From positions 1 to 57,378 of the IMG/VR virus record IMGVR_UViG_3300033153_008467: 57,378 bases of DNA; one strand, given 5' to 3'. Below the pieces are notes generated by a model. It had not been told where the DNA came from, ran no database searches, and saw only the letters and a program-made list of their open reading frames with translations. Shown piece by piece: positions 1,411 through 32,590 of this stretch. How positions within the stretch are numbered: position 1 is the stretch's first letter; each line of letters begins with the position of its first letter. Source of the stretch: a virus (Duplodnaviria > Caudoviricetes). A program made the position numbers and the translations under genes.

Positions 1411-2367
1411 ATGAAGATACTCGTGACCGGCGGGCTCGGCACGATAGGCCGGGGATTGGTGGCGGAACTGAGGTCGCGGGGCCACGATGTGGTGTCGTGC
1501 GATCTATGCCACCAGCCGGACCAGCTCGGTTTTCGGACGGGTTCGGACGTGCCGACCCCACGATACGTGCGGTGCGATGTGGGCTGCTACCGCGAATTGC
1601 AGCAGTTGTTCGACCACCGGCCCGTCGATCTCATGTATCACACTGCCGCCGAGTTCGGCAGGTGGAACGGCGAGGACTACTATGAACGGCTGTGGCAGAC
1701 CGGAGCTATTGGGATGCGCAATATCCTGCGGCTCCAGGAATCGCGGCACTTCCGGCTGGTACACCTCTCCACGTCGGAAGTGTACGGCGACTGGGGAGGC
1801 GTGATGGCCGAGCAGGTCATGGACGAGCAGCCGATCCGACAGCTCAACGACTACGCTATCAGCAAGTGGGCGAACGAGCTACAGATCCGCAACTCGATAG
1901 CCCAATATGACACCAGGACGGTCGTCGTGCGGCTCTTCAACACCTACGGCCCCGGGGAGTATTACTCGCCCTACCGCTCGGCCATCTGCCGGTTCGTCTA
2001 CTGCGCCCTGCGCGGCCTACCGTGGACCGTGCACCGAGGCCACGAGCGGACTTCGACGTACATAGACGATACGGTGAGGACGCTCGCGAACATCGCGGAC
2101 AGGTTTCAGCCTGGCGAAGTGTATAATGTGGGCGGCGGTGAGCCTCATACGAACGAGCATGTGTCCGACTGCGTGGTCGCGGCCACGAACGCTGACCCGT
2201 CGCTCGTACAGTACAAGGACTCCGAGCCGCACACGACCAAGAAGAAGATCGTCGACACCGACAGGGCGAAGAGGGATCTCGACCACAGGATCACGGTTTC
2301 GTTAGAAGAGGGAATCAGGAGGACGGTGGAATGGATGAGGCGAACGTACGTGCCCGGCAAGGGCTGA
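1411..2367 (+). CDS. NAD-dependent nucleotide-sugar epimerase/dehydratase (extended SDR)
   Basis: TGGLGTIG, STSEVYG, YAISK (YxxxK), RLFNTYGP; SD AAGGAGG. Confidence 0.92.
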   Translation: MKILVTGGLGTIGRGLVAELRSRGHDVVSCDLCHQPDQLGFRTGSDVPTPRYVRCDVGCYRELQQLFDHRPVDLMYHTAAEFGRWNGEDYYERLWQTGAIGMRNILRLQESRHFRLVHLSTSEVYGDWGGVMAEQVMDEQPIRQLNDYAISKWANELQIRNSIAQYDTRTVVVRLFNTYGPGEYYSPYRSAICRFVYCALRGLPWTVHRGHERTSTYIDDTVRTLANIADRFQPGEVYNVGGGEPHTNEHVSDCVVAATNADPSLVQYKDSEPHTTKKKIVDTDRAKRDLDHRITVSLEEGIRRTVEWMRRTYVPGKG

Positions 2368-2903
2368 AGCTGCACCTCGGCTGTGGCGAGATTCTTTTGA
2401 AAGGCTTCGTCAACCTAGACGTCCGGCCGCTCGCCGGAGTAGACCTTGTCAACGACGCCCGCGAGCTGTACGTGTACCGCGACGGCTGCGCCGACCTGGT
2501 CTACGCCAGCCACCTCCTAGAGCACTTCTGGCCGTCCGAGGCCCGGGCCGCGGTCAAGGAATGGCATCGGGTACTTAGGCCCGGCGGTGTGCTCCGTGTG
2601 GCTGTACCGGACTTTGAGGTCATCGCGTCCCGCTACGCGGCCACGGGCGACGTCTACGATCTACGGGGGCTCCTGTATGGCAGCCGCGAATACCCTGACT
2701 ACCCGGAAGATGCCCATCACTCGTGCTGGGATTACGTGCTGCTAGTGAAGCTACTCAGGACGGTCGGCTTCGTAGATCTGCGGCGGTACGACTGGCGGCA
2801 GACGGAGCATGCGGCGACGTTGGACTGCTCGTCGGCGCACCTGCCACGGGGCGACTTCGAGCACGGGCAACTGATGAGCCTAAACGTGGAGGCGACAAAA
2901 TGA
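2331..2903 (+). CDS. class I SAM-dependent methyltransferase
   Basis: LHLGCG, NLD, YASHLLEH, RVLRPGGVLRVAVPD. Confidence 0.88.
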   Translation: MDEANVRARQGLKLHLGCGEILLKGFVNLDVRPLAGVDLVNDARELYVYRDGCADLVYASHLLEHFWPSEARAAVKEWHRVLRPGGVLRVAVPDFEVIASRYAATGDVYDLRGLLYGSREYPDYPEDAHHSCWDYVLLVKLLRTVGFVDLRRYDWRQTEHAATLDCSSAHLPRGDFEHGQLMSLNVEATK

Positions 2904-3748
2904 AGGGGACGGTACACTTGCAAGTATACAGCGGGCTCGGGTGCCGCCTACGGTGCGTGCTGGCCGCCGTCACATACACGCAGCGGTCCGGCAAGTCGCT
3001 GCACGTCAACTGGCTGAGGAAAGACAAGTCTCAGACGCTCGGGACCTTTGACGTGTCCTTGAACGAGTTATGGCGCGGCCCATACGAGGTGACAAACAAA
3101 GAGGGCAACTGGGGCGCCAAGCTCTTGACGCCCAAGGACGAGCTAGCGGCGGCGCTGGATACGGATGGCGACGTGTGGATCAGGACGGACACCACGATGG
3201 CGTTCGGCTGCCCCGATCTGGCGGGCTGCCTCCAAACGCACCTGACCCCGACGTCGCTCCTGGCCAATCGCACCGCCGCCTTAATGAAGGGCCTGCCGCG
3301 CCCGATCATTGGGCTACACTTCCGGGACGCGGTCATGAGCCGGTCACGGGCTCCGGACCTGAACTGGTACGTTGACCAGCTTCGCGAGATGCCTGAATGG
3401 CCGGTGTATCTCTGTACCGATACGCCTGAGATGGCGAATGCCGTGCGCGAACGCTTAGGAGATCGGGTACTGATAGCCGAACGGGAAGACGACGAACCGG
3501 TCGGAACGTACAATCGGGCCGGCATCATCCAGGTCGCGGCGGAGCTGTACGTGCTCGCCGCGTGCGACTGGGTGTTCGGGTCGCGGGGGTCGACCTACTC
3601 GGAGCTGGTCGCCCTGATGCGCGGGGCGGAGAAGATCGGGCGGGCGCGCGACGCGAAGAGGATGAAGGCGAACCTGACGGGCGGGCGGTACGCCGACGAG
3701 GCGTGCGGTGTTGACACGAAGGCACTAGCCGAGGTGATAGGAGTATGA
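2900..3748 (+). CDS. fucosyltransferase-like glycosyltransferase (GT11/GT23/NodZ-like)
   Basis: SGLGCRL, IGLHFR, VYLCTD and CDWVFGSRGSTYS match fucosyltransferase motifs. Confidence 0.72.
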   Translation: MKGTVHLQVYSGLGCRLRCVLAAVTYTQRSGKSLHVNWLRKDKSQTLGTFDVSLNELWRGPYEVTNKEGNWGAKLLTPKDELAAALDTDGDVWIRTDTTMAFGCPDLAGCLQTHLTPTSLLANRTAALMKGLPRPIIGLHFRDAVMSRSRAPDLNWYVDQLREMPEWPVYLCTDTPEMANAVRERLGDRVLIAEREDDEPVGTYNRAGIIQVAAELYVLAACDWVFGSRGSTYSELVALMRGAEKIGRARDAKRMKANLTGGRYADEACGVDTKALAEVIGV

Positions 3749-24502: not shown

Positions 24503-26734
24503 TCAGGCCAGCCCCTGGAGTAACCACTTCCTTAATTCCTGCACGTCCACACGCAATCCTTTTATCTCGTCAAGCTGCTTCTTGGGAATGTCCTGGCTGA
24601 TTCCCTGTTGTGTAGTCTTCCAGAACTCTATCAGTCCCATGAACTGCGGCTGCCAGGGCTCTTCCTTCTTCGGCTCTGGGACGTAGATGTACTGTCGCTG
24701 TCCCCCACCTTCCTGGGTGACAATCTCTGTGGGAATCGCCCCTTCTACTTTTTTCCCGAACTTCTGAAACGCCTTCTTGAAATCCTCTAGTGACAGCTCA
24801 ATAGTCTGCGGCCCCGTTCTCTGGTATGGCGTTGGCAGCTTAGCCGACGGTTGCCACGAGCCAAACCGCCCTCCCTGCTGCTCCGGTGCTACCGCTAGAC
24901 CAGGTTCTCCGATCATTTCCGCGATCAAGTCCCGGACGGTTTCTGGAATCTCCACTTCTGGCGCAGCCGTCGCCCTCACGTCCTGCAACGCCTTGGCGAG
25001 CAGGCCGAGTTCTCCTTTCAGTTGCTGCGCTCTCTCGACGGCGGCCTGCCGTTCGTTCAGGTACGTCCTCTGCTGAAAACCCGCTGGGGCCTCCCTCGCT
25101 TTTTGTGCGGCGTCCTTTGCCGCCTTGGCCCACGCTTTCGCTTTTGCATGCGTGGCCTTGATCGCATTGGTGAGGTCATCTGCCCTCCGTTGGGCCTTGG
25201 GTGATAACACCATTCTCGGTTTCTCTTCCCCTGACGGTTCGCCTTCTCCCTTTGTCCGACCCCACTTCTCGCGAGCTACGGCTAACTTCTCTTCGCGGTT
25301 GAGCTTCTTTATCGCCTCTGCCGCATCTTCGGCACCAGACTTGAGCCCAAATAACGCCTTCGTGTTATTACTAAGGGTAGTCCCGAATCCTTCCCCTGTT
25401 AGCCTCGATTGAACGAATGTCTGAAGCAGTAAGGCGATTCCCCCTGCCAGTAATGTTAATCCTCCGCTAGCTAATGCGGCCTGAGTCGTCATCGCCATCA
25501 TCACGCCGACAACGAGCCGCATGCTTCGCAACACCACGGGGATGAGCACCGCCAGTGTTGACCAGCGTACTCCCATCTCAAGTAGGTGAAGCGTCTGCTT
25601 GACAGTGGCGCTGTCGCCCTTCGCTATTGCTGACGCCATATCCCTCAGGTGATCCACGAACTTGCGTAGCTTCGGCGATAGCTCTTTGCTGATTGCGTTA
25701 TCTATGCCCTCGAAAGCTGACCACAGCAGCTTCAGCGAGCCGAATAGCGTATCGAGCGGGACATCCGCCACCCGCTGGGCAGTCCCGCCCGCGTCCTTTA
25801 GCTTGGCCTGCATATCGCGGATCGCATCGCCGCCGACAGACAGCAGCTCCAGCATCCCGGGCCCGGCCCGCATGCCGAACGCCGTCATCATCCGGCCCAT
25901 ACGGTCCATTTCACCCAGCGGCTCCATTGCCCGGTTCAGGTCGTCGAAGATGTCGGCCAGCGGCCGGAGCCCGCCAGACGCATCGGTGATGGCAACGCCC
26001 AGCCCCTCGAATACGTCCTTCAGCTCCTTCGGTTGGGCCGCCATCCGTGCCAACGCACCGCGCAAAGTTGTACCTGCTTGCGAAGCCTGAATACCTGCGT
26101 TGCTCACGGCCATGAGCAGGGCCGTGACCTCCTCCAACTCCACGCCCGCCGTCTTCGCCACAGGGCCGACGTACCGGAACGCCTCGCCCAACTGCGACAG
26201 CGTCGTGTTGCTGGACGTGAACGCCTTAGTCAGCACGTCCATCGTGTGGTTGAGGTCCTTGGCTTCCAGCCCCATCCCGGCCATGACCTTGGCCGTGATG
26301 TCCGCCGCCTGGGCCACGTCCATCTGCCCCGCCGCCGCGACGTTCAGCGTCGCTGGCATCGCCGCCATGATCTTGTTGGCGTCGAACCCCGCTAGGGCGA
26401 AGTAGCTCATCGCCTCGGCCGATTGCCGGGCGGTGAACACGGTCGTCCGACCGAGGGTGAGGGCCTGCGTCTCCAATGCATTGAAGCTCTCGCCCGTCGC
26501 CCCCGTCAACGCCTTGACGCGGGCCATGCCCTGCTCGAAGCCGCCGCCGATCTTCAGGGCCCCCGCGGTCGCGGCACCGGCGATCAGCAGGCCGAACTTC
26601 GCCTGCCTCGCCACGGCGTCCATCCGGTGGATCGATGTCGTCAGCGTCCGGTGGGCGGACGCCAGCCCGCTCTTGAAAGCGTCCATGCCGGTGAGATAGA
26701 TCGGGACGTATCCTTCGCCGAACTTCAAGGCCAT
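24503..26734 (-). CDS. tail tape measure protein (TP901-like core)
   Basis: FEQGMARVKAL, GRTTVFTARQSAEAM..LAGF, GIQASQAGTTLR. Confidence 0.92.
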   Translation of the reverse strand: MALKFGEGYVPIYLTGMDAFKSGLASAHRTLTTSIHRMDAVARQAKFGLLIAGAATAGALKIGGGFEQGMARVKALTGATGESFNALETQALTLGRTTVFTARQSAEAMSYFALAGFDANKIMAAMPATLNVAAAGQMDVAQAADITAKVMAGMGLEAKDLNHTMDVLTKAFTSSNTTLSQLGEAFRYVGPVAKTAGVELEEVTALLMAVSNAGIQASQAGTTLRGALARMAAQPKELKDVFEGLGVAITDASGGLRPLADIFDDLNRAMEPLGEMDRMGRMMTAFGMRAGPGMLELLSVGGDAIRDMQAKLKDAGGTAQRVADVPLDTLFGSLKLLWSAFEGIDNAISKELSPKLRKFVDHLRDMASAIAKGDSATVKQTLHLLEMGVRWSTLAVLIPVVLRSMRLVVGVMMAMTTQAALASGGLTLLAGGIALLLQTFVQSRLTGEGFGTTLSNNTKALFGLKSGAEDAAEAIKKLNREEKLAVAREKWGRTKGEGEPSGEEKPRMVLSPKAQRRADDLTNAIKATHAKAKAWAKAAKDAAQKAREAPAGFQQRTYLNERQAAVERAQQLKGELGLLAKALQDVRATAAPEVEIPETVRDLIAEMIGEPGLAVAPEQQGGRFGSWQPSAKLPTPYQRTGPQTIELSLEDFKKAFQKFGKKVEGAIPTEIVTQEGGGQRQYIYVPEPKKEEPWQPQFMGLIEFWKTTQQGISQDIPKKQLDEIKGLRVDVQELRKWLLQGLA

Positions 26735-27003
26735 TAGAGAATCCCCTCCGCCTTCATCATCGCCTCGACCTTCTCACACCGTGCCTCTGCGGATTCCAGC
26801 TCCCGACGCATCTTCTGATCGGCCGGACGCATCCAGTAGTCCAGCTCGTAGTCGGTCATCCGTCGCACCACGTCCTTCGGTATGTTGTGCTCCGCCTTCA
26901 TGAAGCGAAACACGCGCGGCCACGGGATATTCCAGGGGGTGGCTAGCCCGACCTCGTCGCCCCCTCTGGGGCCCTCGTCGAGGTCGGGCCAGTCTCTTTT
27001 CCC
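26734..27003 (-). CDS. frameshift (T) segment of tail assembly chaperone G-T
   Basis: -1 frame continues from GGGAAAA as GKRDWPDL...AEGIL* up to the tape measure start. Confidence 0.7.
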   Translation of the reverse strand, partial: GKRDWPDLDEGPRGGDEVGLATPWNIPWPRVFRFMKAEHNIPKDVVRRMTDYELDYWMRPADQKMRRELESAEARCEKVEAMMKAEGIL

Positions 27004-27533
27004 GCCATGTCCTGCCCGCTGGCCATGTTCACCGCCTGGTGGAACGCCAGGATCGCGGCGTTTTCCGCCTCGGCCGCCAGCCGCTCCATGTTGTCGGCCT
27101 TCTCGACGTTGTCGCGGATCATGGCGGCGACATGCTCGGCAAACAGGTCGGAGACCTCGGCCTCCGTCAGGAACGGCATCCTTTCCGCCTTCTCGCCGTC
27201 CTTCGGCGGCCACTTCATCGTGCGGCTGCCGTACCATATGGTTCCGGCCCGCGTGCCGAGCCAGTTGAGGATATCGGTCGGAAGCTGATCCTGAATCTCA
27301 CACGCCTTGTCGACGCAGAACTTGAGGAAGTCCTTCCGCTCCTCGGGGCGTTCCGCGAAGTAGGTGGAGCTGGCCTTCGACTCGTACAGGTCCATCGCCT
27401 TCGGGTGGCGACGGATGTACTCCGTCTCCGCCGCGGGGTAGAACTCCTGTATCCGCCCGAAGACTAGCACCTCCTTGCCGCCATAGGTGGACGGCATCGG
27501 CGTGCCAAACGCCCTGGCCGTGGGCCCCAGCAT
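26943..27533 (-). CDS. tail assembly chaperone (gpG-like)
   Basis: Lies between tail tube and tape measure; SD AAGGAGG; slippery site near 3' end. Confidence 0.72.
   Translation of the reverse strand: MLGPTARAFGTPMPSTYGGKEVLVFGRIQEFYPAAETEYIRRHPKAMDLYESKASSTYFAERPEERKDFLKFCVDKACEIQDQLPTDILNWLGTRAGTIWYGSRTMKWPPKDGEKAERMPFLTEAEVSDLFAEHVAAMIRDNVEKADNMERLAAEAENAAILAFHQAVNMASGQDMAGKETGPTSTRAPEGATRSG
26997..27003 (-). promoter_or_regulatory. programmed -1 frameshift slippery site G GGA AAA
   Basis: X XXY YYZ heptamer in the correct frame, like lambda G-T GGGAAAG. Confidence 0.75.
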
Positions 27534-27547
27534 GCTCACCTCCTTTC

Positions 27548-27958
27548 TCAGACTATGGCCCGCGTAGGCAGCGTCCAGTCGCCGTCGCTCTGCCAACTGA
27601 TCACCACCTCCGTCGGCAGCCCCGCCCTGGCGTTGGCGCTTTCGGCGAAGGATACGATCTTCGCCGGCACCTCGTAGTAGGCGTCCGGGTCGATCACGTA
27701 GTCATCGTATAGCTTCAGCGTGACCTGCGTGTTGCTCACCGGGGCCGCGACCTCGGGCGGCGTGTCCCGGTCGACCTTGATCGTGACCGAGCCGTTGAGC
27801 TGCTCTTGCCCGGTCCAGGTCTTTTTCTTGCCCGCCCCGCCGAACACGCCCTCCTGCTGAACGTCAGCTTCCCACGTGAAGCTCCACTCGGAGCCCACCG
27901 TGGCGAGCCCGCTGCCGAGGTCGATATGGGCGTCTTTACCCATCACTACTCTGGTCAT
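27548..27958 (-). CDS. major tail (tube) protein
   Basis: 136 aa beta-rich protein (GKDAHI, EWSFTW, SWQSDG) upstream of chaperones. Confidence 0.7.
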   Translation of the reverse strand: MTRVVMGKDAHIDLGSGLATVGSEWSFTWEADVQQEGVFGGAGKKKTWTGQEQLNGSVTIKVDRDTPPEVAAPVSNTQVTLKLYDDYVIDPDAYYEVPAKIVSFAESANARAGLPTEVVISWQSDGDWTLPTRAIV

Positions 27959-27978
27959 CTCGCATATCCTTTTTTCTC

Positions 27979-28007
27979 TTGACAAACGTTGGCATAATGA
28001 CTACACT
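27979..28007 (+). promoter_or_regulatory. sigma70-type promoter of tnpB, probably leaderless mRNA
   Basis: TTGACA-17 nt-TACACT; ATG starts 7 nt after the -10; no SD. Confidence 0.75.
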
Positions 28008-28013
28008 GTCACT

Positions 28014-29129
28014 ATGTCCAAACGCACGATTAAATGTAAGCTCGCCCCGACGTTATGTATGTCCGACGCACTTGTCGAGACGTGCTCGGTGTTTGCAGAT
28101 GCCTGCAATGACATCCTTTTGACAGCTCTGGCCGAGAACGCCAGCAATAATATCCACCTGCACAAGCTGGTCTACGCGGACATCCGGCGGCAATTCGGGC
28201 TGTCGGCAAACCTTACAGTCCGGGCAATCCGCCGTGTCTCGCAGGCTATGACAGCCGCCAAAAGACGCGGCAGGAAGCCCAGAATGTTCCGGCCGACGAG
28301 CGTTGACTACGACGCCCGCATCTTCGCCTACAGGAAGGCTGACGAGACTGTCTCGCTCACAACAACCCGCGGGCGCCTTCACGTCCCGCTCGTGCTGGGC
28401 GATTACCAGCGGGAGGCGTTGCGTGACAAGCGACCGACAGCGGCGACGTTGGTTCGGTCTGGCGAACAATGGTACATCCACATCGTTGTTGAAGATGAAG
28501 ACGATCCGCCGAAAGACGGGCCCCCTTTGGGCGTCGATCTTGGGATAACCAACACGGCAACGCTGAGTACGGGCACGATCCACAGCGGCAAGGATCGGCA
28601 GACTTTCAAGAACAAACGAAATAGTGTCCGGGCCTCGCTCCAATCTAAGGGGACGCCTGGAGCGAAGCATGTACTGAAACGCCTCTCTGGCCGCGAACAT
28701 AGGAGAATCCGACACGAGAACCACGTACTGAGCCGACGGATCGTTGACGAAGCCCAAAGGCACGAATGCGGCGTTATTCGCATGGAACGGCTCCGGGATA
28801 TTCGGCAGCGAACCAAGATTCACAGTCGCCATTTCAACCGCATGATCTCCGGTTGGTCGTTCGGGCAGTTGCAGCAGTTCATAGCCTACAAGGCCCGCCG
28901 CCTGGGCATCGCTGTTGAACTGGTCAATCCCGCGTACACCAGTCAGACTTGCCACCAATGCGGCCAACGCGGTAAGCGAAATGGCGAACGTTTTTCGTGT
29001 ACAACCTGCGGTGTCTCCCACGCGGACGTCAACGCCGCGTTGAACATCGCAGGCGGGGGCGCCTGTAAGCCGTCCCGAATTGGCGAATTGTGTATCTCGC
29101 ATGGTTCAGTCAAAAGCCCGTTGCTTTAG
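28014..29129 (+). CDS. tnpB: RNA-guided endonuclease TnpB (371 aa)
   Basis: RuvC I GVDLG, RuvC II MERL, WSFGQL, VNPAYTSQTCHQCG/CTTCG zinc finger, RuvC III ADVNAALNI. Confidence 0.95.
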   Translation: MSKRTIKCKLAPTLCMSDALVETCSVFADACNDILLTALAENASNNIHLHKLVYADIRRQFGLSANLTVRAIRRVSQAMTAAKRRGRKPRMFRPTSVDYDARIFAYRKADETVSLTTTRGRLHVPLVLGDYQREALRDKRPTAATLVRSGEQWYIHIVVEDEDDPPKDGPPLGVDLGITNTATLSTGTIHSGKDRQTFKNKRNSVRASLQSKGTPGAKHVLKRLSGREHRRIRHENHVLSRRIVDEAQRHECGVIRMERLRDIRQRTKIHSRHFNRMISGWSFGQLQQFIAYKARRLGIAVELVNPAYTSQTCHQCGQRGKRNGERFSCTTCGVSHADVNAALNIAGGGACKPSRIGELCISHGSVKSPLL

Positions 29130-29164
29130 TTGCGGGTTGCTTACCTCGCGTACCTCCCAAGTCT
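29000..29164 (+). ncRNA. putative omegaRNA/reRNA; guide about 29145-29164; 5' end approximate
   Basis: TnpB reRNAs overlap the tnpB 3' end and right end; hairpin visible at 29114-29138. Confidence 0.55.
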
Positions 29165-29200
29165 TGGGAACTGCGGCGAACACTGGCCGCCGCCTTGCCG

Positions 29201-29773
29201 TTACATGATGCCTGCTATGGCGATGTCGTAGCTGATGTCGCCGCCGCTCGCCTCGCTGCCCGCGTGCTCGATCTGCAATATGTCATGCGTCGCCGGCGAG
29301 ATGCTGTACCCGTCGCGTGGCGCGCACAGCCCGATCTTGCCGTCCGACCGCAGGAGCAGTTGCGCGTCCTGGTCTCCGTTGAAGAGCGACGCCCACGCGT
29401 CGCCCCCGGCCCCGCCGATCAGCAGGTCCTCGCCGGCCGTTGGCGTCGCCGTCGTGTCGTCCGTGTCTCCGGCGACCACGCCTCGGTTGTGGACCATCAG
29501 GACCTTGATCGACGTGAACTCGATCGTGTTGCCGTACTGGTCTGCGAGCCCGCCCCGTAGATCGAGCAAGTCCGTCCCCGACGCCAGGGTCAGTGTTCTG
29601 CGTGCGACCCAAAGCGTATCGCACTGGTTGTCGCCCTTGCCGGAGGTCAGGAACTCCGTCAGGAACCGTAGGTAGTCCTTGTACTCGGCATAGCGCGTAT
29701 TCCCCGCCTCCACCGCGTCGCGGTAGACGAAGTCGAATCGCGCGTTGAATGTGCCCGTGAATGTCACAGTCAT
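29201..29773 (-). CDS. putative structural protein
   Basis: 190 aa ORF between tail terminator and tail tube. Confidence 0.65.
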   Translation of the reverse strand: MTVTFTGTFNARFDFVYRDAVEAGNTRYAEYKDYLRFLTEFLTSGKGDNQCDTLWVARRTLTLASGTDLLDLRGGLADQYGNTIEFTSIKVLMVHNRGVVAGDTDDTTATPTAGEDLLIGGAGGDAWASLFNGDQDAQLLLRSDGKIGLCAPRDGYSISPATHDILQIEHAGSEASGGDISYDIAIAGIM

Positions 29774-29831
29774 ATCGTGCTTCTCCTCTCGATGAGAATT
29801 GAATTGCCAGACCGTCCCGCCATCCCCCTCG

Positions 29832-30260
29832 TCAGGCCGGCCTCCGTCTCCAGTAAGTCACGTCATAGTCAATTGCGCATGCCCACCGATCCTCTGCCGC
29901 CTGCTCGGTACCCTGGCCTATCTTCGTCAATCGCACGTCACGCAACCCCGCGGCCGACAGTGGCAGCGAGAACGAGTCGAATACCGCGTTGACCAGCTCC
30001 GCGTGGTCCCTCACCAGCTCCAGGGTCGCGTCGACGATCTCGAAGTTGAACGATTCCTGAACGAACACCCACCGGTCGAACGCGCCCTCCTCGTTGCTCT
30101 CCTGCGGGTCGACCATCGTGCAGTACGGCACTGGCACGTCGGACGGGGACCCGACCTCGCCCGAGTGCAGCTCATCGAACGGGCCGATGTCACTCGCCCC
30201 GGCGATTAGGGAGGTGGCCGCATCGAACGCCGTCTTGATCGCGTCGTATAGGTCAGCCAA
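29832..30260 (-). CDS. putative tail terminator/completion protein
   Basis: LYDAIK, VPYCT; size and synteny; TTG start inferred. Confidence 0.6.
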   Translation of the reverse strand: MADLYDAIKTAFDAATSLIAGASDIGPFDELHSGEVGSPSDVPVPYCTMVDPQESNEEGAFDRWVFVQESFNFEIVDATLELVRDHAELVNAVFDSFSLPLSAAGLRDVRLTKIGQGTEQAAEDRWACAIDYDVTYWRRRPA

Positions 30261-30930
30261 TCTTGATGCCCCCTTTTGCTGAGAACGCCTTCGCCTCACT
30301 AAGTATCAATCTCTTCAGCCGCCTCCTGTTTCTCTTCAGCGTCCTCCATAGGTACGGTCGCTTCTTTAACCTGAAGCCCTTCGCCTTCATCGTGTAGACC
30401 CACTTGCCTTTGTAGCCGAAGACCATCACCTTCTTTCTCTTCGGCCTCCGGGCTGGTATATACGCCCCTTTCTCCAGGGAGACGCCGTACTTGACTTTCG
30501 TCCCGACTACAACCATCAATCGCTGCCGGTCCCCCGACCAGAAGATCGACCGCGCCAGCTTGCCCGTATCCCGCTTCGGCGGTTGCCCTGGCTTCGATCG
30601 GTTGAACTGCATCGGCTTGCCGGCCGCGCGGCGCTTGAAAAACTCCGGCTCACTGCCACCCTTCCCCCGCCGCCAACGCATACCGCGTCCCAGCTCACCA
30701 GTCCGCGTGAACTTTCCCCGCATCCGCTCCGAACCTTTAATTTTTTTGTAGCCAAACGCAGGCCGCCTCCGCCCGCCTCCGCCCGCCCTGGCCGGCTTGC
30801 TGATCGCCTCTACTACGAGCGCTCGCCCTGCGGCCGCCGCCTTCCTTAATCCGCGGTAAAGTTCCCTCTTCATTCCCGCGAATTGCTTGTCGCCGTGCCA
30901 CTTCACCCTCGCCCTACCCGGCGTCGCCAT
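30253..30930 (-). CDS. HK97 gp10-like neck/tail completion protein
   Basis: PKRDTGKLARSI, VGTKVKYG..LEKG, RPYL. Confidence 0.78.
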   Translation of the reverse strand: MATPGRARVKWHGDKQFAGMKRELYRGLRKAAAAGRALVVEAISKPARAGGGGRRRPAFGYKKIKGSERMRGKFTRTGELGRGMRWRRGKGGSEPEFFKRRAAGKPMQFNRSKPGQPPKRDTGKLARSIFWSGDRQRLMVVVGTKVKYGVSLEKGAYIPARRPKRKKVMVFGYKGKWVYTMKAKGFRLKKRPYLWRTLKRNRRRLKRLILSEAKAFSAKGGIKIG

Positions 30931-31485: not shown

Positions 31486-32220
31486 CTAGAGTTTGCGGCC
31501 AACATGGATGTACGGCACCAGCAGCTTCCTCGCCTTCTTCGGAAGCCGCGACGCCACTTCCTCCACCGCGTAGGTTCCCGTCCAGTCGCCCATCCGCTCC
31601 GACTTCAATGCCCCGCCGCCGGGGCCCCACGACGCGAACTCCTGCCGCACCCCCAGCAGCACCGCCAGCTTGATCGGTGACGCCATCCCCGTCGTCAACT
31701 GGCCCGCCGTCCACCCCGCCGTGTACTGGACTTTGATCGTCCCCGGCCGGCTCGGCCACGGCCCCCCCCTTCGGACCAGGATGCCCGACCGACACATGCC
31801 GCTCTCGTGCTGCCACACCCAGTAGTCGTCCCCTGCCGTCAGTTCCGATGCGGCTGGGAAGTCCCCGCTCTGCTGCCCACCGTAGGCGTCCGCGTCCTCG
31901 TAGACCGCCGATACGGCCGTCACGGGCACTTCTGGCAGGATCAGCCGATTGCCCGCGGAGACCGACGCCGCCCTTAGCTCCACCGCCTTATCGCCACGCT
32001 TGACCCACATGCTGCCGAGGTCCGCGGCGAAGGCACCGCCCGCGTCGACCATCGGCAGGTAGTGCGTGTACGTCGCCTGCTCGATCGCCGTGCCGGTGAA
32101 GTCCTTCACCGCCTGCTCGACAGTCGGGAGGACCGAGTTCAAGAATGCGGTCTCGCTGGCCGTGGCACTCCCCGCCTTGCCCAGGAACGGCAGCACATCG
32201 GCGAACAGGTCAGCAATCAT
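31486..32220 (-). CDS. head-tail connector/adaptor protein
   Basis: LPEVPVTAVSAV, IKVQYTAGW, KSERMGDWTGTY, LLVPY. Confidence 0.78.
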   Translation of the reverse strand: MIADLFADVLPFLGKAGSATASETAFLNSVLPTVEQAVKDFTGTAIEQATYTHYLPMVDAGGAFAADLGSMWVKRGDKAVELRAASVSAGNRLILPEVPVTAVSAVYEDADAYGGQQSGDFPAASELTAGDDYWVWQHESGMCRSGILVRRGGPWPSRPGTIKVQYTAGWTAGQLTTGMASPIKLAVLLGVRQEFASWGPGGGALKSERMGDWTGTYAVEEVASRLPKKARKLLVPYIHVGRKL

Positions 32221-32224
32221 CGAT

Positions 32225-32590
32225 CTAATCCCCTGGTTGAGCCCGCAGTTCCGCCCTGATCGCGTCCAACGCCTCATGTGACGCCTCGCTCAGGCCCAGC
32301 TTCGCCGAGGCGTCATCCATGACGTCGCAGGCGTGCAGGCCGATCCTCCGCACCCGGTCGACGTGCTTCTCCTCGGTTTCCATGTGGCCCACCAGGCGTT
32401 CGGACAACTTCTTCTGCATGGTGTTCGCCGACTCTACGTACTTGATGTGGGTGGCAGCTACCTTCTCGACCGGCCCGTCCTTGCCGAACATCCGCCTGGC
32501 GATCCATGCGACCACCGCCCCCACGAAGACGAGCACGGCCACGGCCACGCCCTGGTCGAACCATCCGAGCATTGAATCGGCGAGCAGCAT
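32225..32590 (-). CDS. single-TM membrane protein, possibly holin-like
   Basis: Hydrophobic GVAVAVLVFVGAVVAWIA followed by helical region. Confidence 0.5.
   Translation of the reverse strand: MLLADSMLGWFDQGVAVAVLVFVGAVVAWIARRMFGKDGPVEKVAATHIKYVESANTMQKKLSERLVGHMETEEKHVDRVRRIGLHACDVMDDASAKLGLSEASHEALDAIRAELRAQPGD

Follow-up and report, generated by a model that had tools for sequence, protein, structure and literature searches.

We describe a tnpB-only element of the IS200/IS605 type that lies within the tail module of a phage. The sequence analysed is an IMG/VR virus record of 57,378 bp, classed linear and 62% complete (the whole stretch is called the window in what follows), and the element occupies 1186 bp of it, from 27959 to 29144 on the plus strand. 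It sits exactly between the native GGAGG, the Shine-Dalgarno (SD) sequence, and the ATG of a tail-tube-like gene read from the minus strand. TnpB elements gave rise to Cas12 and are today regarded as homing nucleases guided by RNA. The parts of the element and of its two junctions, with the evidence behind them, are listed here (TAM, transposon-associated motif).

27955-27958, plus strand: predicted TAM, TCAT, the complement of the tail gene's ATGA, directly 5' of the left end
27959-28013, plus strand: left end, 55 nt, apparently truncated and without a hairpin (alignments, fold, promoter scan)
27959-27963, plus strand: CTCGC in the left end (alignment)
27967-27971, plus strand: TCCTT in the left end, AAGGA on the minus strand (alignment)
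27979-28007, plus strand: promoter-like site TTGACA-17-TACACT (promoter scan)
28014-29129, plus strand: tnpB, 371 aa (Pfam, PHROG, motif alignment)
28965-29144, plus strand: omega-RNA scaffold and right end, overlapping the 3' end of tnpB (consensus folds)
29115-29138, plus strand: terminal hairpin with a conserved CTTTAG loop, followed by the tail GCTTAC (fold)
29145-29160, plus strand: guide template, the TAM-distal half of the original target, holding the native SD (29157-29153) and its 8-nt spacer

The two junctions can be read directly. On the right, the element's terminal ...GCTTAC ends at 29144 and is followed by CTCGCGTACCTCCCAAG, which on the minus strand is GGAGG (29157-29153), 8 nt, and then right-end sequence without an ATG. 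On the left, TCAT (27955-27958) is followed by CTCGCATATCCTTTT, which on the minus strand is AAGGA (27971-27967), 8 nt, and the ATG (27958-27956). The native GGAGG with its 8-nt spacer now stands 1186 bp from that ATG. Directly after the TAM the left end reads CTCGCATATCC, in the order CTCGC, ATA, TCCTTTTTT and a -35 hexamer, and it has no hairpin.

The state of the site without the element is seen in a single related phage record, L002, the only one found when viral contigs were searched with the tail-tube-like protein and with the 190-aa protein encoded on the other side of the element. The L002 proteins are 76% and 70% identical to these two, their genes are neighbours 57 nt apart, and the spacer between them ends in GGAGG, 8 nt and ATG; its 12.8-kb record holds no TNB domain. 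When 27959-29144 is removed from the window in silico, the remaining sequence aligns colinearly with L002 across the junction, and by this colinearity the element splits the native SD from the start codon with no phage base lost or gained. The ATG at 27958 and the next four codons are kept in L002 with synonymous changes (Arg AGA/CGG, Val GTG/GTA); since the differences are synonymous, these codons appear to be translated, and by this sequence comparison ATG 27958 is the genuine start of the tail-tube-like gene.

The ends of the element are defined by its relatives. Related TnpB loci were collected from metagenome contigs (25 loci; the best, L007, is 75% identical over residues 101-371), genome contigs (4 loci) and viral contigs (4 loci), and a 30-sequence alignment of closer TnpB homologues added 13 further viral-contig loci. 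Five closer relatives (L038, L039, L042, L045 and L048; TnpB identity 54-61%) are the canonical ones referred to below. On the right side, homology stops at ...T(T/G)AC after a covarying hairpin with a CTTTAG loop in 11/11 and 8/8 aligned sequences, and L007 and the window diverge directly after ...TTAC. Since right-end homology ends there in the relatives, 29144 is the last position of the right end and 29145 the first of the guide. The terminal hairpin carries compensatory changes in L007 and others, and the consensus folds of the omega-RNA carry them at 11 of 20 pairs (11 sequences) and 16 of 34 pairs (8 sequences). On the left side, the TAM position holds a core TCAY in 10 of 10 distinct contexts from the distant clades and (T/A)TCAT in all five canonical members (5/5), so that the assignment of TCAT as the TAM is well supported by comparison.

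The guide is CUCGCGUACCUCCCAA, and the sole match to its template in the window, at up to 3 mismatches, is the template itself (29145-29160). An uninterrupted site would carry both TAM and target; the window itself holds none. The right junction carries TTAC in place of the TAM, and the occupied left junction is predicted to remain uncut because it mismatches the guide at positions 6, 9 and 11-16. In IS608 and ISDra2 work, the TnpB seed is about 12 nt and the cut falls 15-21 bp from the TAM. Two further observations touch the guide and the ends. The guide RNA, transcribed antisense, would be complementary to the late mRNA of the phage itself over its SD and spacer, and an antisense effect on translation there is hypothetical. 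Separately, across the relatives, the 4 nt just 5' of the right-end hairpin foot covary with the cleavage motif (AAAA with TTAC, (A/G)CAA with TGAC), and the left end has a counterpart (GAAA(C/G) with TAM TCAT, GGAAG with TAM TCAC); such covariation would be expected of a TnpA that recognises its cleavage sites through base pairing, as the enzyme of IS608 does.

TnpB itself matches the Pfam families Cas12f1-like_TNB (4.9e-23) and OrfB_IS605 (2.2e-9) and phrog_506 of PHROG, 'transposase' (2e-43). Its RuvC residues D175, E258 and D338 and both CxxC pairs stand in invariant columns of alignments with relatives and with solved Cas12f/TnpB chains, and all of the invariant columns of the 30-sequence alignment are kept (72/72). 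To the solved chains the identity is low, with a best E of 1.9e-18 and over the C-terminal half only. A change from R to L in the motif NAA(R/L)NIA was considered as a defect and ruled out, the position being variable among relatives. The promoter-like site upstream agrees with consensus at 10 of 12 positions. Judged by sequence, then, the catalytic residues, the omega-RNA helices and the promoter-like site look intact. A Y1 transposase gene, tnpA, is not found in the 57-kb record (62% complete; nothing matches PF01797 at E <= 1), and the same record holds no second copy of the element and no second TNB domain. An Rfam search of 27000-30000 on both strands at E <= 1 returned no family, so there is no named omega-RNA or intron model here. 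The element has a GC content of 0.57 against 0.63-0.64 in its flanks, and 0.68 against 0.87 at third codon positions; this composition suggests a foreign origin and gives no date.

Much of this had been anticipated by an earlier reading made by a model from the letters alone (the sequence-only reading). The letters it quoted at both junctions are all present where it placed them, and its placement of the element between the native SD and the ATG, its choice of TCAT as the TAM, its start of the guide at 29145 and its statement that the three RuvC residues are intact with no tnpA present all hold up against L002, the aligned relatives and the PF01797 search.

What sets this copy apart is its left end. 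In the canonical closer relatives the element measures 1218-1222 bp and its left end 98 nt, against 1186 bp and 55 nt in the window; more distant relatives have elements of 1233-1265 bp. The left end of the closer relatives consists first of the TAM, about 20 nt, a hairpin with a CTTTAG loop and GGGAGGAAAC, and then of CTCGC, TCCTTTTTT, a -35 hexamer, a -10 hexamer and the ATG. In the MAFFT alignment the hairpin region of the relatives faces 47 gap columns in the window, and the window's CTCGC falls on theirs. This pentamer, which in the relatives is the 3' arm of the left end's outer stem, occurs in 5/6 of their left ends (L042 has CCGC; CGC is invariant). A left-end hairpin is present in 8/8 aligned distant relatives and 5/5 canonical closer relatives, with L040 retaining the 3' half alone; folded as DNA, the window's left end gives no comparable hairpin, and only 20 nt separate its TAM from the -35 hexamer. 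Compared with the canonical relatives, this left end lacks some 43-47 nt, hairpin included, which we read as a secondary deletion, and CTCGC adjoins the TAM only because this stretch is missing. The same deletion would have brought AAGGA, an inherited motif, to its present place 8 nt from the ATG: AGGAG or AAGGAG is found in 5/6 relatives just 5' of the hairpin in the minus-strand RNA. TnpA is known from IS608 and ISDra2 to require the hairpins of both ends. Because the left-end hairpin is missing, the element should not be excisable by TnpA, and it is probably immobile for that enzyme. Truncated or altered left ends are frequent in the family (L011, L013, L040/L041, L043), and L011 offers a second hairpin-less left end that still adjoins its TAM.

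The operon that received the element is a tail module on the minus strand, in the order adaptor, Neck1-like gene, 190-aa gene, element, 136-aa tail-tube-like gene, chaperone-like frames and tape measure, with tnpB (28014-29129, plus strand) antisense within it.

31486-32277, minus strand: head-tail adaptor gene (phrog_442)
30253-30930, minus strand: Neck1-like gene (phrog_5)
29201-29773, minus strand: 190-aa structural-module gene (phrog_22694, function unannotated; homologue adjacent in L002/L036)
29145-29200, minus strand: native intergenic spacer, complete, 56 nt, between the 190-aa and tail-tube-like genes, colinear with the 57 nt of L002
27548-27958, minus strand: tail-tube-like (major tail protein-like) gene, 136 aa (open reading frame, ORF; ATG 27958-27956)
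26943-27596 and 26734-27237, minus strand: two overlapping frames of 217 aa and 167 aa, tail-assembly-chaperone-like
24503-26734, minus strand: tape measure gene (phrog_1533, 5e-86)

The 136-aa protein has no match in Pfam, PHROG or PDB sequences. In the protein Atlas it groups with 'Major tail protein' and PF06199 tail-tube clusters by its features (0.96), and its predicted structure resembles the same clusters with a template-modelling (TM) score of 0.72-0.76; these look-alikes make the tail-tube assignment a supported lead and are to be read as a lead only. The frames at 26734-27596, between the tube-like and tape measure genes, have the layout of chaperones made by programmed frameshifting, and these overlapping frames have no PHROG match.

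How well the tail gene could be translated from the occupied site can be gauged from pairing energies. With a generic anti-SD sequence, which may not be the host's, the duplex energy is -5.4 kcal/mol for AAGGA against -11.5 kcal/mol for the native SD, and the mean unpaired probability is 0.62 against 0.17. Upstream of the phage's ORFs, GGAGG-type motifs are common and AAGGA also occurs, in a count whose heuristic favours SD-bearing starts. On these predictions AAGGA is a plausible substitute SD for the tail gene, weaker but accessible.

We assemble these observations into the following history, to which as a whole we give a probability of about 0.65. The element would first have inserted canonically at TCAT, with TnpA supplied in trans. 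A later event would have deleted the left-end hairpin and placed the outward-facing AAGGA 8 nt from the ATG as a substitute SD, and the hairpin-deleted variant would have been kept since the tail gene needs translation. The deletion would also have made the element non-excisable by TnpA and so fixed it at its site. From then on, TnpB with its omega-RNA would cut only uninterrupted genomes, those with the TAM TCAT and the guide target, in the SD region of the tail gene, and an occupied genome, used as repair template, would pass the element on to the cut one, which amounts to TnpA-independent homing or interference during co-infection. The likeness of the left end to the guide would be a by-product. 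By analogy, homing or phage competition by the element is plausible.

Several points weigh against this history. The one related site without an insert is diverged: L002 has CCAT instead of TCAT and its target is shifted, so that it would not be cut. An exact search of IMG/VR for the 16-nt target gave 3 matches, all unrelated and preceded by TTCAA, and no cleavable empty allele was found by the IMG/VR target search, among the 90% protein clusters or in the related records. The deletion is drawn from relatives at only 54-61% TnpB identity; the closest relative, L007 (75%), is without a left end since its contig is cut there, so that a hairpin may never have existed in the lineage of the window itself. 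Finally, the predicted pairing of the substitute SD has about half the strength of that of the native SD.

In a rival account the element is an inert stranded remnant, a decaying immobile insertion sequence (IS) of no present use to itself or the phage, with the tail gene translated sufficiently by chance and TnpB without a role in spread or competition. The frequent decay of left ends among the relatives named above, the lack of a cleavable empty allele in the target and related-protein searches and the lack of tnpA in the 57-kb record all count in its favour. Against it stand the full-length ORF with all 72 invariant columns, the promoter-like site at 10/12 and the kept omega-RNA helices, and a useless 1.2-kb insert before a tail gene would be expected to be lost under packaging and translation constraints. 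We therefore hold this account to be unlikely, although it deserves serious attention.

Carriage of the insert can be followed in the protein clusters and in read data. Three contigs are on record for each of the tube-like protein, the 190-aa protein and TnpB, the longest being 92657 bases in every case, and none of these proteins has other members at 90% identity; this pattern fits an insert that is stably carried or fixed, and it gives no evidence of ongoing homing. A cultured-phage collection gave no match in the search for empty alleles. Three hydrothermal-vent runs, where the phage has small shares, yielded five short contigs for the region. One of them, from run X1, bridges the left junction; none skips the element, most of which they leave uncovered, and they are uninformative on empty alleles.

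Within the proposed history, the left junction could have formed in three ways. The hairpin could have been deleted in cis and the product selected for its restored SD, in which case the pentamer identity with the target would be a coincidence (route A). The junction could instead derive from imprecise homing, in which an uninterrupted genome is cut, repair synthesis from the right side stalls at the left-end hairpin and the nascent end pairs via CTCGC with the TAM-proximal bases of the broken target (route B); this route would account for the pentamer identity and for TCAT having been kept exactly. Or TnpA could have excised aberrantly, using the left-end hairpin as a pseudo right end (route C): the endpoint of the deletion lies 7 nt 3' of the hairpin foot, similar to the 6-8 nt between the true right end and its own hairpin, and the hairpin-less left end of L011 likewise still adjoins its TAM. 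The present evidence does not choose among the three.

The position at a start codon raises the question of whether close relatives share it, as the sequence-only reading suggested checking. One certainly does: in L042, a canonical element with a full left-end hairpin on a 23-kb viral contig, the element (2403-3620), in antisense orientation, directly adjoins the start codon of a DUF2442 gene (2058-2402, minus strand), whose Pfam match (7.4e-13) begins with profile position 1 at residue 4 and so marks a true gene start. L048 is a possible second case, its element lying at the ATG of a 105-aa ORF without a family match. The other three of the five closer members (L038, L039, L045) are not at gene starts, and the distant clades mostly are not either: the frames opened by the CAT/CAC of their TAMs are only 2-94 aa long, save in L027, where a 211-aa frame is the interior of a cation-efflux gene interrupted by the element. 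A naive open-frame null is uninformative here, 151 of 628 TCAT sites (24%) opening a frame of at least 100 aa. Because the complement of the TAM is ATGA and the genome is almost all coding, gene starts are natural survivable sites, and survivorship would explain start-codon sites without targeting, since only insertions that spare ORFs would persist in phages.

The relatives show further features of their own. The antisense frame of tnpB is open and codon-aligned for 351 codons in the window (28053-29102, minus strand), for 340-352 codons in L038, L039, L040 and L042 despite a GC content of 0.39-0.43, and for 425 in L043. Its first stop in L038, L039, L042 and L048 is the TGA in the TAM complement ATGA, and in L042 and L048 this TGA shares bases with the start codon of the downstream ORF. 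The window's frame ends sooner, at TTA Leu14, and does not run in frame with ATGA. These tnpB genes make sparing use of TTA, CTA and TCA codons relative to flanking frames. Three tnpB loci (L043, L044, L050) lie on one 97-kb viral contig, where L044 796-939 is a miniature element of 144 nt in which a 39-nt left-end piece is joined to a 112-nt right end with no tnpB, similar to miniature inverted-repeat (MITE) or palindrome-associated (PATE) transposable elements. L029 joins the left flank of L017 to the right flank of L027 around the same element, which looks like recombination between IS copies. In L007 (829-833) the right end lies 1 nt from the stop codon of an opposite-strand 129-aa ORF, so that this copy is intergenic and antisense to its neighbour.

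A more elaborate account would take the TnpB subfamily to be adapted to start codons of compact phage genomes. The ATGA of the TAM would supply both the downstream ATG and the TGA that ends the antisense frame of about 350 codons, allowing coupling by termination and reinitiation; a back-up SD would be provided by the outward AAGGAG where the left-end hairpin has its base; and the window's copy would be a derivative of imprecise TnpB-triggered homing via the 5-nt CTCGC microhomology, its scar recording homing between phages. Resting as it does on few related sequences, this combination strikes us as doubtful, and clearly more so than the inert remnant.

The sequence-only reading went in another direction, proposing that the left end evolved in the phage to rebuild the ribosome-binding site and to mimic the guide, keeping an essential gene expressed, with seed mismatches protecting it from its own nuclease. 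The likeness is real: compared over their first 10 nt, the left end and the right flank agree at 8 positions, a level of at least 8/10 that is reached at 78 of 114738 window positions (6.8e-4) and, among the 351 TCAT sites in the window, only at the element's left junction. The spacing of AAGGA from the ATG, 8 nt, also equals that of the native GGAGG. Yet five of the eight matches are the inherited CTCGC, found with TCCTT(TT) in the relatives, where the 5/6 carriers of the pentamer are all at unrelated sites, and the other three fall among five positions, which is unremarkable. Ordinary left ends match their guides less, at 0-5/10 (13 rows) and 0-3/10 (4 rows), so that self-cutting is avoided without any mimicry, and mimicry would raise the risk of self-targeting where the proposal has it lowered. 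Of that proposal there remains the AAGGA 8 nt from the ATG, its motif inherited (5/6 relatives) and repositioned, not rebuilt; evolved mimicry, and self-cutting avoided by means of it, we regard as very improbable. What the rarity of an 8/10 match asks for is a reason why the deletion stops at just the pentamer with which the target begins, and not an argument from design; the likeness may be a by-product of that inherited pentamer, by coincidence with the target or by microhomology when the junction formed. A 9-nt repeat, ATCTCGCAT, shared by the left junction and the right-end scaffold, was set aside as not meaningful, since its right-end copy is partly conserved in L043.

Equally hard to sustain is a different boundary, with a left end that starts at 27964 (ATATCC...), a CTCGC that is a 5-bp duplication or tandem native copy and a TAM other than TCAT: an exact 5-nt direct repeat of CTCGC does flank the element (27959-27963, 29145-29149), but the left copy aligns with the conserved left-end-internal CTCGC of the relatives, tandem native copies would give an SD spacing of 13 nt against 8 nt in L002, TCAY adjoins the left end in all relatives, and IS200/IS605 elements are not known to make a target duplication. 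On the alignments, the CTCGC repeat is explained by left-end homology without a target duplication, a 5-bp duplication being still conceivable.

Placed among known systems, the element is best described as a defective tnpB-only (IS1341-like) member of the IS200/IS605 family. It has the TnpB domains with the D-E-D triad, the omega-RNA scaffold, the right-end hairpin and the TAM, and of the features tested it lacks the left-end hairpin and, in the 57-kb record, the Y1 (HUH) transposase. An IStron is ruled out by the empty Rfam search of 27000-30000 on both strands and by the orientation of tnpB, antisense to the interrupted operon. TldR-type repressors have lost RuvC catalytic residues or have a truncated C-terminus; a nuclease-dead TnpB of this type is ruled out here, with D175, E258, D338 and the zinc ribbon intact. 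The nearest model is the ISDra2-type TnpB with its omega-RNA, reportedly described by Karvelis and colleagues in 2021: both are compact RuvC and zinc-ribbon nucleases whose omega-RNA is encoded by the right end together with the 3' part of tnpB, whose guide is the right-end flank and whose TAM lies 5' of the left end, with TAM and target whole only in the empty site. The element differs in having no tnpA and no left-end hairpin, in its TAM (TCAT here, TTGAT in ISDra2) and in its setting in a phage structural operon.

Its predicted action, to cut the element-free allele and have the element copied in by recombination, is that of TnpB retention or gene-drive systems, a mode termed 'non-restorative homing' where TnpA is absent, and Meers and colleagues are said to have described TnpB-driven transposon retention in a preprint. 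Those studies concern chromosomes and plasmids, whereas here the setting is a phage and the action is predicted from sequence. TnpA-independent spread of IS605 in plasmids has been shown (Mears et al., PMC11870625), and 'non-restorative homing' into co-infecting phages is proposed as a theoretical possibility in a review (PMC13565253). In the literature on TnpB, phage genomes and co-infection we found no experimental phage case of TnpB homing, and the papers found that bring together TnpB, Shine-Dalgarno sequences, start codons and insertion describe no such case.

Two phage systems invite comparison, each known here from excerpts of its source. The free-standing homing endonuclease genes of T-even phages, Seg and Mob (PMC13565253), are likewise nuclease genes set among conserved phage genes, and could exclude a co-infecting relative's allele or convert it; Seg and Mob recognise their sites by protein, whereas the element does so by RNA guide and with an unrelated nuclease fold, and what discriminates alleles is the presence or absence of the insert for the element and sequence polymorphism for Seg and Mob. 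The tnpB of cyanophage A-1(L) has a reverse-strand ORF named 'TnpB_rev' (10.64898/2026.02.14.705889), and it resembles the present case as a phage-borne tnpB with an open frame of about 350 codons on the opposite strand. It differs in that the A-1(L) copy has the same sequence as copies in the host and is part of an invertible module, and the excerpted text of that preprint reports neither a start-codon insertion nor a link between TAM and stop codon.

In the literature searched, the behaviour of TnpB inside phage genomes is little documented, and this locus shows base by base how a tnpB element can live in a tightly packed viral operon. With a TAM that is the complement of a start codon, the insertion breaks no ORF; the left-end deletion, as we read it, supplies a replacement ribosome-binding site and at the same time locks the element, leaving the guide-directed nuclease as its sole route of spread. 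If TnpB is inactive, the locus would be a tolerated, decaying IS and a tidy example of compensatory evolution after insertion. If it is active, the phage would carry a built-in weapon or gene drive against insert-free relatives, aimed at the ribosome-binding-site region directly ahead of a tail gene's start codon, and the locus would be a concrete case of RNA-guided interference between phages.

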